A stretch of DNA of 64,000 nt from Anaerovoracaceae bacterium (lineage in GTDB: Bacteria > Bacillota > Clostridia > Peptostreptococcales > Anaerovoracaceae): assembly GCA_963678385.1 (NCBI GenBank), contig OY782829.1, positions 781,397-845,396 of the forward strand, read 5' to 3'. The translations under genes and the position numbers were made by a program. Below, in pieces: positions 3,541 to 48,758 of the stretch (within the stretch, counting starts at the first letter, position 1; every line of letters begins with the position of its first letter). Below the pieces are notes generated by a model. The model searched no databases. It was not told where the DNA came from and worked only from the letters and a program-made list of their open reading frames with translations.

Positions 3541-3671
3541 GATTACCGCTTCGTGAGTTGGCGGGCATCGTCAAGAAAAAAATGGAAAATCTGGGCGCAA
3601 ATTCTTTTTGCCTTTGTTTCCATATGATATACTAAATTCAGGTTTTCTGAGCAGATACAGGAGGTGGTAAT

Positions 3672-4424
3672 ATTAAGAGAAGCATTGGTCAACTAATTGT
3701 TGCGATAGTGATAGTGATTTTTATTGGATTCATTTTATATTTCTTTAATTCTTTTACCGGGAACCCTGTTTCCGCTTTTATCGCATCCCATAAAATAAGA
3801 GACTATGTTGCCATTACTTACCTATCGAGTGATATAGAATTATCCGAAGTCAAATACAATTTTAAAAACAGTGCATATGGCTGCCATGCCCAATCAAGGA
3901 TAAGCGAAGATACAAAATTTTATATCTCATATAGCCATGGCAGGGTCAGCGATGACTATCAATACGAAGTGGCAAACCACTTTACAACCTACCGGCGTCT
4001 TAGTAAAGATTTTAATGACATGGTAACAGGCGTCGTTGAAAAAGGATATCCCCATGAAACCACATTGATCATCGGTGATTTGATTGGCGATACTCAGCAG
4101 CTTACTCCGGATGTGCCATTAAACCTGAAGAATATGCCGCTGCAGTTGTCTTTGACCGTGAGCGTCTTAAGTGATGCCCAGAATGATGATCAGATGGCGG
4201 CCTTGCTCCTGGAACTCCATCAGCTTATGTTGAACAAGGATATTAATATAGACCAATACACAATTCGGCTGGAGGAACCTATGCCGGATGAGAGTAAACC
4301 GGGCAGCGGTAACAATCTGTATTTGGAAAGCTTTCCTGCAAGGAATATAACAGATGATCAAGAAAGACTTGCATCTGTTATTGAAAAGCATCAATTGGAT
4401 ATAAATAAAAATGAAAAGCAGTAG
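3672..4424 (+). CDS. Membrane-anchored hypothetical protein (YfjL-like N-terminus)
   Basis: N-terminal TM followed by FTGNP; AGGAGGT RBS sits 6 nt before an in-frame ATT (ORF track starts at 3708). Confidence 0.65.
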   Translation: MKRSIGQLIVAIVIVIFIGFILYFFNSFTGNPVSAFIASHKIRDYVAITYLSSDIELSEVKYNFKNSAYGCHAQSRISEDTKFYISYSHGRVSDDYQYEVANHFTTYRRLSKDFNDMVTGVVEKGYPHETTLIIGDLIGDTQQLTPDVPLNLKNMPLQLSLTVSVLSDAQNDDQMAALLLELHQLMLNKDINIDQYTIRLEEPMPDESKPGSGNNLYLESFPARNITDDQERLASVIEKHQLDINKNEKQ

Positions 4425-9299: not shown

Positions 9300-12200
9300 A
9301 TGAGTAAAGTGAAAAGAAAAATCCTATCGGTACTCCTGGCGCTTGCAATGATTGCAGGCATGTTGCCGGCAGGAATGATAGAGGCCCATGCCTTTACCGG
9401 AACATGGGCGGATCACGCTGCAAGCGGTTTTGCCGTTGGCGACGGGACCTCAGGGAACCCGTACCAGATCTCTTCGGCGGCAGAGTTGGCTCATCTGGCA
9501 ACATTGGTAAACAGCGGTACCGACACATCGGGAAAGTATTATAAGCTGATGGCTGACATAGACGTCAATGATTATGTATGGGAACCGATCGGGTATCGTT
9601 CAAAGTGGCAAGGCGGGGATTATTCATTTAAAGGGAATTTTGAAGGCAACGGCTACTGTATAAAAAGGGTACATTTCGGCGGAGGAGCCGCTTCGCCCAA
9701 TGAGAATTACTCCTATGGGGGATTGTTTGGACAGACAGACGGAGCTGTGATCAAAAATCTGGGAATCGACACCGGTACCTCAGGGAACGGAATGAGTCTG
9801 GAAGGAATGCATGACGCCTTCCTGGGCGCTCTTGTCGGATGTGCAAACAACACAACGATCACAAACTGCTATTCCACAGGCGATAATGCAATTATCATCG
9901 GGCATAACAGTTCATCAAGCTATTCAACTGATGTTTCAAGCCAAAAACCCGCCGTCGGAGGTCTGGTGGGTGTTGCATCAGGCGGCACCAAAATTGACCG
10001 GTGCCATTCGGACGTTAAGGTCGTTATAGCTTATTTTTCGGATGCGGGAGGTTTGGTTGGACGTATCGCGGAATCTACCGTTAAAAACAGCTACTCTGTT
10101 TCTTCGGCGGGGTCTGCCGCCAGTCGGGCAGTCTCTATCAATTACAACATGAAAACCGATAACGCAATACAACCGTATGTCGGAGGTCTGGTAGGTAATT
10201 GCGGCACATTCGGTAAGATTGAGAACTGTTATACCACCCGTAACATTTATTTGATCGGAAGTGGAGCTACTCCGAGTTTCGCGATTCGTATCGGCGGCTT
10301 TGTCGGGTACAATTCCTATGGCACAATCATGAATTGTTTTGCTGCAGCAGAGACGATGAATATACAAAATTCAAATACAGACGCTAAAATCGGCGGTTTT
10401 GCAGGAGAAATCACATACCTGTCAACGATTTACAATTCATATTACAATAGCAGTATTTATACTTCTCCCTTCGGAACGAACACCGGAGCTTATTCGGCGG
10501 CAGTTCAGCTTACCGATGCTCAAATGAAGGGCGAAGCGAAGTCGATAGAGTACTATACTTCCTATACAAACAGCACAACAAACACGATAGGCGGTACCGC
10601 CTCCTCTGTCATCGATGCGCTTAATCTCGGCCGACCTGCGGGAGACGTCTTATATTCGTGGCAGGCCGACAGCTCGTCGGCAAACAACGGATATCCGTTG
10701 TTTTATACCGGATCGACCTCATCGATTTCACTGAAAAATAAGACTGTTGATTATAACGGCTCGGCCGTGGCATACACCTCGGCCGACATCGCATCGCTAA
10801 GCGGATCCAGCGGAACTTTGAGCTATAAATACTATTCTGACGCTGGCTGCAGTACAGAAATTGCTGCCCCGAGCAATGCCGGGACGTATTATGTAAAAGC
10901 GACGGTTGCAGCGGACAGTATTTATAGCAGTGCTGAATCCTCAGCGGCAACACTGACGATATCGACTGTACCGGTAACTGGCATCACCGGAGTACCAACA
11001 AGTGCAACGGCGGGCACGGACCTGACACTTTCCGGAACCGTAAATCCCGGAACTGCTACGAATAAAACCATAACCTGGACTGTAAAGAACGCCGGAGGAA
11101 CCGGCGCAACGATCAGCGGTGATACACTTTCCGCCAGCGCCGCGGGGACTGTTACAGTCACTGCGACCATCACGAACGGAACAGCAGTCGGCACAAACTA
11201 TACGCAGGATTTTGACATTACAGTAAGCATGCCGTTCGTGCCGGTGACGGGTATCACGGGAGTATCGACCGCGATGACGGCCGGCACCCCGCTGACGCTC
11301 TCCGGTACTGTGGGTCCTTCTGGTGCTACGAATAAAACCATAACCTGGACTGTAAAGAACGCCGGAGGAACCGGCGCAACGATCAGCGGTGATACACTTT
11401 CCGCCAGCGCCGCGGGGACTGTTACAGTCACTGCGACCATCACGAACGGAACAGCAGTCGGCACAAACTATACGCAGGATTTTGACATTACAGTAAGCAT
11501 GCCGTTCGTGCCGGTGACGGGTATCACGGGAGTATCGACCGCGATGACGGCCGGCACCCCGCTGACGCTCTCCGGTACTGTGGGTCCTTCTGGTGCTACG
11601 AATAAAACCATAACCTGGACTGTAAAGAACGCCGGAGGAACCGGCGCAACGATCAGCGGTGATACACTTTCCGCCAGCGCCGCGGGGACTGTTACAGTCA
11701 CTGCGACCATCACGAACGGAACAGCAGTCGGCACAAACTATACGCAGGATTTTGACATTACAGTAAGCATGCCGTTCGTGCCGGTGACGGGTATCACGGG
11801 AGTATCGACCGCGATGACGGCCGGCACCCCGCTGACGCTCTCCGGTACTGTGGGTCCTTCTGGTGCTACGAATAAAACCATAACCTGGACTGTAAAGAAC
11901 GCCGGAGGAACCGGCGCAACGATCAGCGGTGATACACTTTCCGCCAGCGCCGCGGGGACTGTTACAGTCACAGCGACCATTACGAACGGAACGGCAGTCG
12001 GCACAAACTATACCGAGGACTTTAACATTACAGTAAGCATGCCGTTCGTGCCGGTGACGGGTATCACGGGAGTATCGACCGCGATGACGGCCGGCACCCC
12101 GCTGACGCTCTCCGGTACTGTGGGTCCTTCTGGTGCTACGAATAAAACCATAACCTGGACTGTAAAGAACGCCGGAGGAACCGGCGCAACGATCAGCGGA

Positions 12201-13916
12201 AGCACGCTTTCCGCTGTCAGTGCGGGCACCGTTACCGTCACTGCGACCATTACAAACGGAACGGCAGTCGGCACAAACTATACCGAGGACTTTACTATAG
12301 CGGTAAGTACGACACCTCCTGCGGATAAAATCCTGATAAGTATTAACACCCCGACCGCCATAACCGGCCTGAACAACGGTACGGCGAAAACCACCTCTGC
12401 GTTGGGCCTGCCCTCTTCGGTGACACTGAACACTGACAACGGATATGTCAGCGCCAGTGTGACTTGGGATGTAGCCTCCTGTGCTTACAATGCAGCCTCG
12501 ACCAGCGCACAGACATTCACTGTCAGCGGTACGGCCACTCTGCCGGCAGGTGTGGTAAACACAAACAGCATTTCCCTAAACACCAGTATTAGTGTGACAG
12601 TCAACATGGCTTCCGGCGGTAGCGGCGGAGGCGGCGGTTCCAATGGTGGCGGCGGTTCCAATGGTGGCGGTGGAGGCGGAGGCGGCACTCCGACAACGAG
12701 CGGCAGCAGCGCTACCAAAGTCATGGTTGACGGAGGCACAGTCACAGCGGCTCAGACATTTTCAGCGACCACGGGGTCAGACGGTATGGTGGCAGCCAGT
12801 GTAACCAAGGATCAGATTGCAGGGATGGTAAAAGCAGCCGGCGAAAAAGCGCAGGGTCTGAATACTCAAACATCACTGGAAATAACGGTTGATTCCGGCA
12901 ATGCCGCGACCGGCGTATCTGTGACCATCAACCAGGGTGCGGCATCTACGTTGACCAATGGTGTATCCGCCTTGACGATCTCATCGCCCATTGTTAAGGT
13001 AACATTTGATGATAAAGCTTTGGATGCAATCAACAAAAATACCGCCGGAGACATCACTGTTACGGCGCGTAAGCCGGCTGACACCGTACTATCCGACGAG
13101 GATAAAGCAATCATAGGTAACAGACCGGTATATGATCTTAAGGTATCCAATGGCGGCACGGCAATTTCGACATTCGGTGGCGGTACTGCAACAGTAAGCG
13201 TTCCATATAAGCACGCCGCAGGCGAAGACGTCAACAAAATAGTCGTTTACTATATTTCAGGCAGCGGTAAGCTTGTTGTGGTTCCGGACTGCTCCTATGA
13301 CGCTTCCAGCGGAACGGTGACTTTTAAGACGACACATTTTTCCTCCTACGCTGTAGCTTATAACAACGTCAGCTTCACAGATGTATCCGGCTGGTATGCG
13401 GATTATGTGAGCTATCTCGCTGCGCGGGGCATCATAAACGGCGCAGGCGACGAGAAATTCAGCCCGGGCAACAACATAACAAGAGCTGAATTTGTAACGA
13501 TACTTGCAAAGCTTTCCGGCAACGATCTAAGCAGTTATACAACTTCCGCTTTCGGCGATGTAGCGGCGAACGCCTGGTATTCCGCTGCAGTACAGTGGGC
13601 ATATGAAAACGGTATCGCGTCCGGCAACAATGGTAATTTCGGTCCCAATGCGAAGATTACCCGCGAGCAGATGGCGGCTATGCTGTATAACTACGCCAAA
13701 TACATGGGGATTGACGTTTCCGGTGTGGGAATGTCCCAACAGAAATTCTCTGACGCCGCAAGCATTTCAAAATGGGCCGCAAGTCCGGTTCAATGGGCTG
13801 TCAGCAGCGGCATCGTTTCCGGCAACAGCAACGGTACCTTTACTCCAAATGCGAATGCCACGCGGGGCCAGACTGCAAAAATGATTGCAGTTCTCATGCA
13901 GGGCACGATAAAATAA
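9300..13916 (+). CDS. Large secreted SLH-anchored surface protein (GLUG-type repeats, MBG-like domain, five Ig-like repeats, three SLH domains)
   Basis: Signal peptide, GDGTSGNPYQI, repeated VGGLVG, Gly-rich linker, SLH motifs FSPGNNITRAEF / FGPNAKITREQM / FTPNANATRGQ. Confidence 0.9.
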   Translation: MSKVKRKILSVLLALAMIAGMLPAGMIEAHAFTGTWADHAASGFAVGDGTSGNPYQISSAAELAHLATLVNSGTDTSGKYYKLMADIDVNDYVWEPIGYRSKWQGGDYSFKGNFEGNGYCIKRVHFGGGAASPNENYSYGGLFGQTDGAVIKNLGIDTGTSGNGMSLEGMHDAFLGALVGCANNTTITNCYSTGDNAIIIGHNSSSSYSTDVSSQKPAVGGLVGVASGGTKIDRCHSDVKVVIAYFSDAGGLVGRIAESTVKNSYSVSSAGSAASRAVSINYNMKTDNAIQPYVGGLVGNCGTFGKIENCYTTRNIYLIGSGATPSFAIRIGGFVGYNSYGTIMNCFAAAETMNIQNSNTDAKIGGFAGEITYLSTIYNSYYNSSIYTSPFGTNTGAYSAAVQLTDAQMKGEAKSIEYYTSYTNSTTNTIGGTASSVIDALNLGRPAGDVLYSWQADSSSANNGYPLFYTGSTSSISLKNKTVDYNGSAVAYTSADIASLSGSSGTLSYKYYSDAGCSTEIAAPSNAGTYYVKATVAADSIYSSAESSAATLTISTVPVTGITGVPTSATAGTDLTLSGTVNPGTATNKTITWTVKNAGGTGATISGDTLSASAAGTVTVTATITNGTAVGTNYTQDFDITVSMPFVPVTGITGVSTAMTAGTPLTLSGTVGPSGATNKTITWTVKNAGGTGATISGDTLSASAAGTVTVTATITNGTAVGTNYTQDFDITVSMPFVPVTGITGVSTAMTAGTPLTLSGTVGPSGATNKTITWTVKNAGGTGATISGDTLSASAAGTVTVTATITNGTAVGTNYTQDFDITVSMPFVPVTGITGVSTAMTAGTPLTLSGTVGPSGATNKTITWTVKNAGGTGATISGDTLSASAAGTVTVTATITNGTAVGTNYTEDFNITVSMPFVPVTGITGVSTAMTAGTPLTLSGTVGPSGATNKTITWTVKNAGGTGATISGSTLSAVSAGTVTVTATITNGTAVGTNYTEDFTIAVSTTPPADKILISINTPTAITGLNNGTAKTTSALGLPSSVTLNTDNGYVSASVTWDVASCAYNAASTSAQTFTVSGTATLPAGVVNTNSISLNTSISVTVNMASGGSGGGGGSNGGGGSNGGGGGGGGTPTTSGSSATKVMVDGGTVTAAQTFSATTGSDGMVAASVTKDQIAGMVKAAGEKAQGLNTQTSLEITVDSGNAATGVSVTINQGAASTLTNGVSALTISSPIVKVTFDDKALDAINKNTAGDITVTARKPADTVLSDEDKAIIGNRPVYDLKVSNGGTAISTFGGGTATVSVPYKHAAGEDVNKIVVYYISGSGKLVVVPDCSYDASSGTVTFKTTHFSSYAVAYNNVSFTDVSGWYADYVSYLAARGIINGAGDEKFSPGNNITRAEFVTILAKLSGNDLSSYTTSAFGDVAANAWYSAAVQWAYENGIASGNNGNFGPNAKITREQMAAMLYNYAKYMGIDVSGVGMSQQKFSDAASISKWAASPVQWAVSSGIVSGNSNGTFTPNANATRGQTAKMIAVLMQGTIK
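10968..12306 (+). repeat. Five tandem 270-bp (90-aa) Ig-like units
   Basis: taacctggac recurs at 11071, 11341, 11611, 11881, 12151; central units are nucleotide-identical over long stretches. Confidence 0.95.
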
Positions 13917-46697: not shown

Positions 46698-47804
46698 TTA
46701 TTCGAAGGGGAATCTATGCTTTAGCCCCAGTGCGTTGCGCACCTCGATGAATTCCTTCTGGACGGCTTCTCCAACGGGAACGCCCTTGTCCTTTCTTTCC
46801 AGCCAGGTGAGATATTCCTTCTCGCCAGCCGTGTAGATCCTGTTTTCTCCCGGAGCCAACGTGGATGCCCGCAGCTCTCTGAGGATATCTCCGGTGGTTT
46901 TCTTGAAACTCTCAGCTCCCAGAAAGGCCTCCGTGTCGATGGCAATAAAGAAGTGTCCTAGATGGTAAGGCACTTTTTCTCCGTGTTCACCCAGGCCCGT
47001 GAGCATTTTCATGTAGCTGCCCGCCTGCAGTGCCGCAGACAGGATCTCAACCACAGCGGCATAACCGTACCCCTTGTATCCGCCAAGCTCTTCGCCGATG
47101 CCGCCCAAAGGCGCCAGCGCCGCTTTTTCCTTTACGAGGTCGTCGAGAATCTGCACGCTGTCGGTCATGGCCTTTCCGTCATGTCCGATGACCATACCTG
47201 CCGGCGTATCCTTGCCTACCCGCGCATAATATTCGATCTTGCCACGCTGGGTGATGCTTGTTGCGCAATCCAGCATGAAGGGGAATTCCTCATCGGTGGG
47301 GATTCCGAAGGTCAGCGGATTGGTGCCCATCATGTTTTCCACTCCAAAGGTGGGCGCGATGGAAGGACGCGCGTTGGTTCCCGTGATCCCGATCATGTTT
47401 TCCTTTACCGCCATGGATGCATAATAGCCGGCAATGCCGTAATGGGTAGAATTTCTGGCGGCCACCATGCCCATGCCGTATTTCTTGGCCTTTTCGATGG
47501 CCATGGTCATGGCCTTGTGGCCGACGATCATTCCCATGCCGTCGTGGCCGTCCACAACAGCCGTTGTCGGCGTTTCTTTCAGGATTTCAAATTCGGTAAC
47601 AGGTTTCTGGATACCTGCGTTGATACGGTCGATATAGATCGGCTTGAAGCGGTTGCAGCCGTGGCTTTCGATTCCGCGTCTGTCGCTTTCCATCAGAACG
47701 TCGGCGCAGATCGCGGCCTCGCCTGCCGGTACGCCGATTTTCTCAAACGCCGCCGTCATAAAATCTCCGATCAGTTCCCATGATACATAAGGTCTGTTCT
47801 CCAT
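46698..47804 (-). CDS. Ldh_2 (type 2 malate/L-lactate dehydrogenase) family oxidoreductase
   Basis: GIESHG, RNSTHYG, GTNPL, LDCATS, GGYKGYG, GHFFIAID. Confidence 0.9.
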   Translation of the reverse strand: MENRPYVSWELIGDFMTAAFEKIGVPAGEAAICADVLMESDRRGIESHGCNRFKPIYIDRINAGIQKPVTEFEILKETPTTAVVDGHDGMGMIVGHKAMTMAIEKAKKYGMGMVAARNSTHYGIAGYYASMAVKENMIGITGTNARPSIAPTFGVENMMGTNPLTFGIPTDEEFPFMLDCATSITQRGKIEYYARVGKDTPAGMVIGHDGKAMTDSVQILDDLVKEKAALAPLGGIGEELGGYKGYGYAAVVEILSAALQAGSYMKMLTGLGEHGEKVPYHLGHFFIAIDTEAFLGAESFKKTTGDILRELRASTLAPGENRIYTAGEKEYLTWLERKDKGVPVGEAVQKEFIEVRNALGLKHRFPFE

Positions 47805-47843
47805 AATGCCTCCTTAGATTTTTATCGCTTAATGTCATGCTGG

Positions 47844-48172
47844 GACGCCGCTTGCATGTTATAGTAAATCCACTATTCTAGGTGATTGCATAAATGCAAT
47901 CTACTGCAGCTTCGCTGAGAGGTAGGATTCATTGAAACATGCTTCGACGCAGCTTGTATGTTATAATAAATCCACTATTCTAGGTGATTGCATAAATGCA
48001 ATCTACTGCAGCTTCGCTGAGAGGTAGGATTCATTGAAACATGCTTCGACGCCGCTTGCATGTTATAATAAATCCACTATTCTAGGTGATTGCATAAATG
48101 CAATCTACTGCAGCTTCGCTGAGAGGTAGGATTCATTGAAACATGCTTCGACGCCGCTTGCATGTTATAATA
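47844..48172. repeat. Tandem array of 3.2 near-identical 102-bp structured units
   Basis: gacgc recurs at 47844, 47946, 48048, 48150; aaatccactattctagg at 47866, 47968, 48070. Confidence 0.95.
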
Positions 48173-48299
48173 CCTATTATTGTCCACTGCTTCCATTATA
48201 CTGGCAGATAATGGGGAAAGTAAATATTTTTTCGAACCTGACATACAGTTGTCAGGTTCGGGGTGTTATAAATCAATCAAAAACAAAAGGAGGGAAATT

Positions 48300-48758
48300 A
48301 TGGGATATCAGTTTGAATTGACCGATGAAAGGGAACAGCCGGTGCTTTCCGTGCGGATAAGGACTGCGGTGGGGAATCTGCCGCAGGAGTTCGGAAGGAT
48401 CTACGGAGCGATCCTGCAGTATCTTGGGGAAATCGGTGAAACAACGGAGGGACCGGCCTTCGGGGCGTACTACAATATGGATATGGAAGACCTTGATGTG
48501 GAAATCGGCTTTATCATGCCAAAGGCGATCCAGGGGAATGGCGATGTTCAGGCGGGCAGCATTCCGGCAGGCAAACAGGCGTCCTGCATGTACAAAGGGG
48601 CTTACGACGACATGGCGCCGGTTTATAACGCCATGATGGAATGGATTGCGGAAAAGGGTCTGGAACCTACCGGCGTCAGCTATGAGTTTTACTACAACTC
48701 CCCTGCGGAAGTTCCGGTAAGTGAGCTGCTGACGAAAATTGTATTTCCGTTGAAGTAA
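48300..48758 (+). CDS. GyrI-like small-molecule-binding domain protein
   Basis: GPAFGAYYNMDMEDLDVEIGF, YKGAYD, YEFYYNSP; start at ATG 48300 behind AGGAGG. Confidence 0.85.
   Translation: MGYQFELTDEREQPVLSVRIRTAVGNLPQEFGRIYGAILQYLGEIGETTEGPAFGAYYNMDMEDLDVEIGFIMPKAIQGNGDVQAGSIPAGKQASCMYKGAYDDMAPVYNAMMEWIAEKGLEPTGVSYEFYYNSPAEVPVSELLTKIVFPLK

Follow-up and report, generated by a model that had tools for sequence, protein, structure and literature searches.

We have analysed a tandem array of 102-bp units that lies between two divergent genes in a 64,000-nucleotide stretch of DNA from an Anaerovoracaceae bacterium (contig OY782829.1, positions 781,397 to 845,396). This stretch is called the window below; its own genome, a single contig of 3.70 Mb, is designated G000, and the other G-numbers denote congeners. 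The flanking genes are divergent, as stated in the original prediction; they encode an Ldh_2-family dehydrogenase on the minus strand and the GyrI-like protein on the plus strand. Tandem Repeats Finder returns a single array at 47836-48172 with a period of 102, 3.3 copies, 97% matches, no indels and a score of 639. The tandem arrangement of 102-bp units is thereby upheld, and the earlier extent of 47844-48172 (3.2 copies) is corrected. The features of the locus are as follows.

46698-47804, minus strand: Ldh_2-family dehydrogenase gene (open reading frame list; orthologues 87-93% identical within the genus)
47836-48172, plus strand: whole array, 3.3 head-to-tail 102-bp units (Tandem Repeats Finder, sequence, matches to the family profile and covariance model)
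47857-47865, plus strand: extended -10 number 0, degenerate, TGTTATAGT (sequence)
47866-47967, plus strand: unit 1, cut as the family's insertion unit (sequence, folds, family alignment, pair counts)
47866-47871: unit 1, arm S1, AAATCC
47884-47901: unit 1, locus-specific tip hairpin gattgca-taaa-tgcaatc
47907-47917: unit 1, mini-hairpin CAGC-TTC-GCTG
47925-47929: unit 1, arm S1', GGATT, then ATTGAAA
47938-47960: unit 1, hairpin H3, CATGC-13 nt-GTATG
47959-47967: unit 1, closing box TGTTATAAT
47968-48069, plus strand: unit 2, closing box TGTTATAAT at 48061-48069 (sequence, Tandem Repeats Finder)
48070-48171, plus strand: unit 3, terminal TGTTATAAT at 48163-48171, aimed at the GyrI-like gene (sequence, Tandem Repeats Finder)
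48195-48224, minus strand: predicted resident promoter of sigma-70 type for the Ldh_2 gene (10/12 matches in a promoter scan)
48234-48272, plus strand: proximal promoter region of the GyrI-like gene (sequence, orthologous intergenic regions)
48300-48758, plus strand: gene for the GyrI-like small-molecule-binding protein, downstream of the array (Pfam PF06445, E = 4e-24)

The left end of the array is a partial unit, consisting of hairpin H3 and a degenerate -10, and its right end is TGTTATAAT. All of the arms from which a branched hairpin had been proposed (gcatgtt/aacatgc, aatcc/ggatt, gattgca-taaa-tgcaatc and cagc-ttc-gctg) are present, as are GCGAAGC in the reverse complement of the last of these and the C-to-T change at 47957 (gTatgtt), which faces a G. 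An extended -10 had been claimed for each junction; TGTTATAAT indeed closes units 1-3 and the last of these boxes points at the GyrI-like gene, the first copy having TGTTATAGT instead. Minimum-energy folds reproduce the branched hairpin, with each unit reaching -27.8 to -29.8 kcal/mol as RNA (z = -2.4 to -2.6 against shuffles). As single-stranded DNA the unit is moderately better than shuffles on both strands (z = -3.05 for the plus and -3.40 for the minus strand), and an alternative register in which the hairpin is centred on the 13-nt linker is about equally stable (z = -3.2). The units are contiguous and 97% identical across all 102 bp, with no spacers, in keeping with the earlier statement that this is not a CRISPR; identity among the units is 97-100%. 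Blastn searches of a plasmid and a phage collection give no match to the array, and an exact 32-nt pattern taken from the private tip hairpin has no match in metagenome contigs.

BLAST against the window's own genome shows that the two ends of the unit recur at many places, whereas its middle is private to this locus. Iterated nhmmer searches of the same genome recover 65 junction copies in 38 intergenic clusters, about one third of which contain 2 to 6 tandem units, repeating every 78-192 bp. A duplication confined to one locus, without homologues or covariation, had been named as the outcome that would undo the original prediction; copies at 38 loci and the covarying helices described below contradict it. 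The canonical unit begins with TGnTATAAT, followed by a 6-nt arm S1 (for example GATTCC), about 12 nt (ATTGATTATTA) and the mini-hairpin CGGC-GTT-GCCG, and continues with CAAGGTA, the arm S1' (GGAATC), ATTGAAT, hairpin H3 (CATGC-loop-GCATG) and n-TATAAT. The cassettes are non-coding and about 80-105 bp long, and even 'single' copies of the family have two -10 boxes, one at each end. Identity between loci reaches 92% over 85 nt (upstream of an SSF transporter gene versus birA), with at least 15 pairs at 82% or more. Some arrays, at 229 kb, 860 kb, 2318 kb and 3034 kb of the genome, are made of mixed unit types, which suggests repeated insertion in addition to local duplication. A small reading frame within the unit (a Shine-Dalgarno-like AAGGTAGG, 11 nt, then the ATG in CATGC) was dismissed on inspection by eye, its length and frame not being kept across linker variants.

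The H3 loop is mostly 13 nt long, and in eight copies it contains an additional module of about 90 nt that belongs to a separate repeat family. This second structured family, with about 35 copies, has the consensus GCCTTTTTGCC-hairpin-GGCAAAACGGACAGC-hairpin-GGAGG...CGTTG, examples being G000:C1:2173490-2173558, 562243-562307 and 846232-846298, the last just past the right end of the window. Apart from the eight copies nested in H3 loops, its members stand alone or within a third palindromic repeat (...ATATTTTCATAGAAAACCGGAC / GAGCGGATTTTCGAGAAAATAT).

The extended -10, already noted in the original prediction, proves to be the key feature of the repeat. On a crude map of open reading frames, the terminal -10 is directed towards the start of the next frame at 34 of the 38 loci, and one further locus is rescued by eye (a glnS-like start), giving 35/38. 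Where the cassette lies between co-directional genes, 16 copies run with and 2 against the direction of the genes (binomial p ~0.001); in these two the box has decayed to TATAAG. Past the terminal box, the distance to a ribosome-binding site and start codon is 15-60 nt, and the same layout of box and gene is seen at family loci of Emergencia timonensis, Anaerovorax odorimutans and several metagenome-assembled genomes (MAGs). The downstream genes are unrelated and have no common theme; they include those for RF1, ribosomal protein L11, BirA, TilS, RuvC, MurB, cyclophilin, PrsA, GdpP, three OmpR-type regulators and transporters. Cassette orientation follows the genes and not replication: 26/38 loci are co-directional with replication, compared to 74% of genes, when origin and terminus are estimated from GC skew only, so that the bias seen does not exceed that of the genes themselves. 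Between the 5' arm of H3 and the -10 box lie 13 to more than 90 nt; readings of the junction as a sigma-54, sporulation-sigma or -35 element do not fit by eye. The ruvC gene is preceded by a family array in two species, with 9 units in A. odorimutans (NZ_AUFC01000017.1 (L062), 3617-4300) and 2 units plus a nested module in G000 (G000:C1:2173451-2173810), which reflects either an old shared insertion or a recurrent target. One cassette (G000:C1:2794691-2794790) points into a convergent spacer, where a strong terminator-like hairpin (GGCTGCTCCG...CGGAGCAGCC, then TTTTTG) lies about 45 nt past the terminal TATAAT; this copy could drive a short RNA.

Comparison of orthologous promoters in congeners for ten genes shows where the cassette is placed. 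Seven loci are clean (prfA, birA, a response regulator, tilS, a thrE-like gene, a small reading frame before sdaAB, and ppiB), three are ambiguous (rplK, an amidohydrolase locus and the window's own) and none is contradictory. At the clean loci the empty form, ...TGnTATAAT running directly into the leader, is retained by two to eight relatives, whereas in the filled form (in G000, or in G004 for ppiB) the element starts at the first base past the resident hexamer and ends in its own box GCATGnTATAAT. Three examples are given 5' to 3', with a slash at each junction.

prfA: empty in eight species, AAATTCATGATATAAT/TTTTGGGATTAAAT...; filled in G000, AAATTCATGGTATAAT/GAACGC ... GCATGATATAAT/ACTTGGGATTATTTAAT
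birA: empty, TTTATGGTATAAT/CTTTGTACAAAC; filled in G000, TTTATGATATAAT/GAACGC...GTATGATATAAT/CTTTTTATAAC
ppiB: empty in G015 and G009, CATGCTATAAT/GCTTGTAATG; filled in G004 with one unit, CCATGCTATAAT/GATTCC...ACATGATATAAT/GCTTAAATAC

The ppiB promoter is also filled in G000, with two units. In the filled promoters the left box keeps the 'n' and the upstream context of the relatives. The right box has its 'n' base-paired in hairpin H3, which makes this box a component of the element rather than a copy of the target. As judged from these orthologous sites, the cassette is placed right behind a resident TATAAT. At rplK the element begins after the nusG stop sequence GATATAA-T, which suggests that sequence, and not promoter function alone, defines the site. 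Past the terminal box, the tilS, thrE-like and response-regulator loci show a repeat of 4-8 S1-like bases. The tilS gene itself appears to be leaderless across the genus, its -10 ending 6-7 nt before the ATG with no ribosome-binding site (orthologues in five congeners), and the G000 cassette keeps this spacing of -10 and ATG (G000:C1 ~942240-942262).

The helices of the unit were assessed by counting pairs on an alignment of 39 units, for the inner part of H1 (ATAAT + S1 against S1' + ATT), the mini-hairpin and H3. Paired cells make up 96.2% of the total and 14 of 21 pairs have changes on both sides; the observed pairing is reached by 0/500 shuffles, and controls in which the partner is slid are 24-54% paired. 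All three helices covary, as a covariation check proposed with the original prediction would have it, with the outer extension of H1 fitting worse than H3. Variants of S1/S1' include GATTCC/GGAATC, GAACGC/GCGTTC, GGTTCC/GGAACC, AAGCGC/GCGCTT, GGACGT/ACGTCC, GAATGT/ACATTC and GATCGC/GCGATC, and the 'n' of TGnTATAAT covaries with the base following ATTGAA. Were the fold selected as RNA, G-U pairs should be preferred on the strand of that RNA. When one fixed T-G pair (the third base of TATAAT facing the G of ATTGAA) is set aside, however, the non-Watson-Crick cells comprise 8 G-T and 11 A-C, with no G-U excess, and the helices therefore fit DNA-level pairing and not RNA. Moreover, H1 takes its 5' arm from the -10 box and the next six bases, and this arm lies upstream of the transcript that the box would start. 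The helices thus look like DNA-level palindromes, formed as single-stranded DNA hairpins or cruciforms, and palindrome correction may keep them perfect.

A covariance model built from the 39 units matches 17 of the 19 genomes of the genus, with 57 matches in the window's genome, 27, 14 and 13 in the next three and fewer elsewhere. In an order-wide sample of 141 genomes the model matches two, the window's own and one from another Anaerovoracaceae genus. An exact-pattern scan of one genome per species finds Anaerovoracaceae-type records only, including E. timonensis SN18, A. odorimutans DSM 5092 and Emergencia MAGs, and also gut MAGs labelled Eubacterium/Eubacteriaceae. By these searches the family is lineage-specific and, outside the genus, found within Anaerovoracaceae only. 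This distribution marks the source of the window as an Emergencia-like bacterium. We found no description of this repeat family in the literature on Emergencia or Anaerovorax.

At the window locus the predicted Ldh_2 promoter (-35 TTTACT, 18 nt, -10 TATAAT) lies to the right of the array, and the ribosome-binding site of Ldh_2 is 31 nt from the array on the other side. The minus-strand TATAAT of this promoter corresponds to the motif CATTATACTGGCAG, which is kept in the array-free genomes G004, G005, G018 and G010. Because this promoter lies beyond the array, the array sits in antisense orientation within the predicted 5' leader of Ldh_2, which it lengthens from about 50 nt to about 390 nt. 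The original prediction mentions neither this position in a leader nor the placement of the family behind resident -10 boxes. On the other side, a perfect 10-bp inverted repeat at 48234-48259 (GAACCTGACA-6 nt-TGTCAGGTTC) and TGTTATAAA at 48264-48272 precede the GyrI-like gene and are also kept in array-free relatives; the inverted repeat is likely the operator of a repressor, and we treat it as a candidate. Transcripts started at the array boxes, which are upstream of it, would read through this region. The closest relative, G004 (Ldh_2 93% identical in amino acids), has the same divergent pair with a 190-nt spacer and no repeat, and the spacer is also empty in G005, G018 and G007. When the array is collapsed to one junction, its terminal box aligns to TATACT of G004. 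The Ldh_2 orthologues of G002 and G014 are preceded by a distinct array of this family (period ~117), which has the opposite orientation and is aimed at Ldh_2.

Taken together, these observations lead us to read the array, with a probability of about two in three, as the local amplification of a lineage-specific hairpin DNA cassette that regenerates promoters. On this proposal the cassette would insert immediately 3' of a resident TATAAT and put its own TATAAT at the gene-relative position of the old box, and the rebuilt promoter would keep the gene expressed, allowing the cassette to spread without silencing genes. Every copy would recreate a direct repeat of 9-12 nt together with the target, leading to head-to-tail stacking by further insertion, unequal recombination or slippage and hence to arrays of 2 to 9 units. 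The helices would be maintained as DNA palindromes, through single-stranded or cruciform DNA and palindrome correction, and not as an RNA fold. In the window, 3 1/3 units with a private tip hairpin would aim four -10 boxes at the GyrI-like gene. As to how the cassette spreads, we lean slightly towards recombination between -10 repeats, by copy-choice or microhomology and stimulated by the hairpins, or towards an enzyme not yet recognised. A more specific and tentative version, which we think possible but doubtful, is that of a selfish cassette homing to the -10 box of housekeeping promoters and inserting between -7 and -6. Such a cassette may take advantage of the open complex, where the non-template strand is single-stranded, or of replication stalled at a hairpin. 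It would spare its host by bringing a replacement extended -10, and would owe its movement to an enzyme or a process of the host that has so far not been connected with transposition, the recreated target building tandem promoter arrays.

Several observations weigh against this interpretation. No -35 hexamer is present 16-18 nt from the unit boxes, and a two-hexamer promoter scan does not call them; given this and the variable spacing from H3, the boxes would function without a -35, as extended -10 promoters, an activity that we assign from their sequence and position alone. Right junctions vary by 0-8 nt, and so the placement rule is not absolute, and the amidohydrolase locus is complex, its relatives already carrying TATAAT, GATTCC and a leader hairpin. 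Gain in the filled lineage appears the parsimonious reading of the orthologous sites, but precise loss in the relatives, by recombination between the two -10 direct repeats, would look identical. Since the copies share ancestry, the covariation counts overstate the number of independent events. At the window locus itself, the comparison with G004 passes through diverged AT-rich DNA, and the left end of the array begins with the H3 hairpin and not with a clean junction of resident -10 and S1.

One alternative is that the repeat is a REP/BIME- or PATE-type substrate of a Y1 HUH transposase (RAYT or IS200/IS605 TnpA) acting in trans, moving as single-stranded DNA cut after TATAAT at both ends, with the hairpins as recognition structures. 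IS200/IS605 elements insert on the 3' side of a short motif that is always the same and do not duplicate it; they lack terminal inverted repeats, have subterminal hairpins, and carry the same target motif at the element 3' end. The layout of the family resembles such ends and those of PATEs, down to the 3' motif resembling a cleavage site: at seven orthologous loci the element starts right after the resident TATAAT, with a right box that differs at 'n', and its subterminal hairpins are each preceded by an ATTGA-type motif partly complementary to TATAAT. Like REP/BIME repeats and REPINs, the family consists of dispersed, imperfect intergenic palindromes that form clusters, pair at the level of DNA and are mosaic, with alternating arms and two linker types across the 38 loci, and GTAG stands just 5' of arm S1' (GGTAGGAATC). 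Y1_Tnp genes occur in 8/19 congeners, including G007, G004 and G015, which have the most copies among them. The window's own genome, however, has the most copies of all and yields 0 matches to PF01797 in a search for which control genomes are positive; proximity to a RAYT or IS200-like tnpA, proposed earlier as a check, thus fails there, and a cognate RAYT is the defining partner of REP/BIME systems. Moreover, neither the hairpins nor the ends of congener IS200 copies are related to those of the family, the covariance model is not significant around six congener tnpA loci (best E = 0.62), and G011 has a Y1 gene without the element. The orientation with genes, without a lagging-strand bias beyond theirs, and the variable right junctions also speak against such a transposase, and REPs are mostly found at gene 3' ends or between operon genes and carry no promoter. 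Hence the REP/BIME-like description originally offered holds for a dispersed, mosaic, palindromic intergenic repeat and not for its enzyme, and we consider the transposase explanation unlikely.

The remaining alternatives assign a function to the array or its fold. Locally selected promoter amplification would raise or de-repress the GyrI-like gene by dosage, or would tune Ldh_2. Four same-sense -10 boxes do lie upstream of the GyrI-like operator, from which read-through would bypass a bound repressor, the 97-100% identity of the units implies that amplification is recent, and arrays precede particular genes in several species, as at ruvC. Nevertheless, arrays are a general property of the family, the same cassette stands in single copy before many unrelated genes, direct repeats and hairpins alone predict slippage, and the GyrI-like gene has its own conserved promoter 100 nt downstream. 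Dosage is therefore retained from the original prediction as a secondary possibility only, and quite an improbable one. A tandem structured non-coding RNA or cis-regulatory leader, in which the branched hairpin acts as RNA, could draw on the strong covariation, the folding z-scores and the promoter-like box in each unit. Rfam searches, also recommended earlier, match no structured-RNA family to the array: window positions 47600-48500 give chance-level hits only (E >= 1.4 in a permissive search to E <= 10), and four other family loci give nothing but one unrelated T-box leader. (This leader, RF00230 at 130 bits, adjoins the 3034-kb array on its opposite side; L006 2287-2507, G000:C1 ~3034980-3035200.) The wobble signature is lacking, the long stem has its 5' arm ahead of the start that its -10 box would set, and the gene-proximal copy usually ends right after TATAAT, so that the mRNA would contain none of the fold. 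Presence and absence also differ at orthologous promoters of essential genes, and no terminator was found in the scan; an RNA role is accordingly very improbable. Finally, the palindromes could be sites of one transcription factor in a shared operator or promoter of a regulon, for which the palindromic sequence beside the -10 at about 35 promoters might argue. This possibility is largely refuted and scarcely credible: the arm sequences differ while staying complementary, the opposite of a conserved binding site, similarity spans 80-100 nt and reaches 92% between loci, the genes share no theme, and orthologous promoters of sister species are without the element. An integron attC or cassette array was also rejected, as GTTATAA / GATATAA misfits GTTRRRY and the units hold no open reading frame; an integrase was not searched for.

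A promoter-regenerating cassette of this kind has partial counterparts among known systems. Putative mobile promoters (Matus-Garcia, Nijveen and van Passel 2012; PMC3575422) are, as far as that account goes, similar non-coding sequences upstream of unrelated genes in one genome, shared between related genera, to which it attaches no known mobile element or Rfam family, and they are defined there by similarity at -150 to -50, mostly leaving out the -10 box. The family described here resembles them in all of the first three respects and, with identities of 80% or more across 50 nt or longer ahead of non-paralogous genes in a single genome, falls under their operational definition, but differs in that the -10 box is boundary, payload and apparently target, and in its three covarying palindromes and its arrays. 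The Correia elements (CREE/NEMIS) of Neisseria are described, within the scope of PMC2649163 and of Siddique 2011 as cited in PMC3575422, as small palindromic repeats that do not code for protein and whose ends create promoter boxes, thereby altering the expression of neighbours; they can form promoters at either or both ends. Both they and the present family are small, palindromic and non-coding, have no known transposase of their own and bring promoter boxes. Correia elements have terminal inverted repeats and a TA target duplication. In the present family, by contrast, the ends are direct TGnTATAAT repeats and the flanking boxes are not identical target copies, unlike those of Correia- or RUP-type miniature inverted-repeat transposable elements, and a single polar 3' -10 box is placed behind a resident -10, in units that form head-to-tail arrays. 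TnGBS/ISLre2 are large elements with a DDE transposase that choose sigma-A promoters, landing 15-17 bp upstream of the -35; promoters serve as insertion sites in both cases, but those elements are large, lie upstream of the -35 and replace no promoter box. In Correia elements, ERIC and some REPINs, promoters arise as a by-product. If our interpretation is correct, the present family would offer a clear 'safe-landing' strategy for bacterial repeats, which land on a promoter box and rebuild it, the box apparently being target, boundary and payload at once. This would explain promoter swapping and multiplication at essential genes (prfA, rplK, birA, tilS, ruvC) between sister species, and would provide a natural set of extended -10 arrays of 1 to 9 copies in gut Anaerovoracaceae, including E. 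timonensis, as well as a system in which spread driven by hairpins without a transposase could be tested, or a new mobilising enzyme sought. For annotation, such arrays could be mistaken for structured RNAs or CRISPR-like loci.

Two further repeats were seen in passing. Another recurring promoter-type motif, GAAAATTTTCTACAGTCGAAAATTTTC followed by ATGCGTTATAAT, lies upstream of unrelated genes in several species (G000:C1 ~2097645-2097690, and the spacers of G004 rplK and birA, G007 Ldh_2 and G017 prfA), and may be a second mobile promoter or a regulator site. Within the window, Tandem Repeats Finder also reports a 270-bp tandem repeat at 11054-12283 (4.6 copies, 97% identical), which presumably encodes a repeated protein domain, within a stretch read as a giant SLH surface protein.

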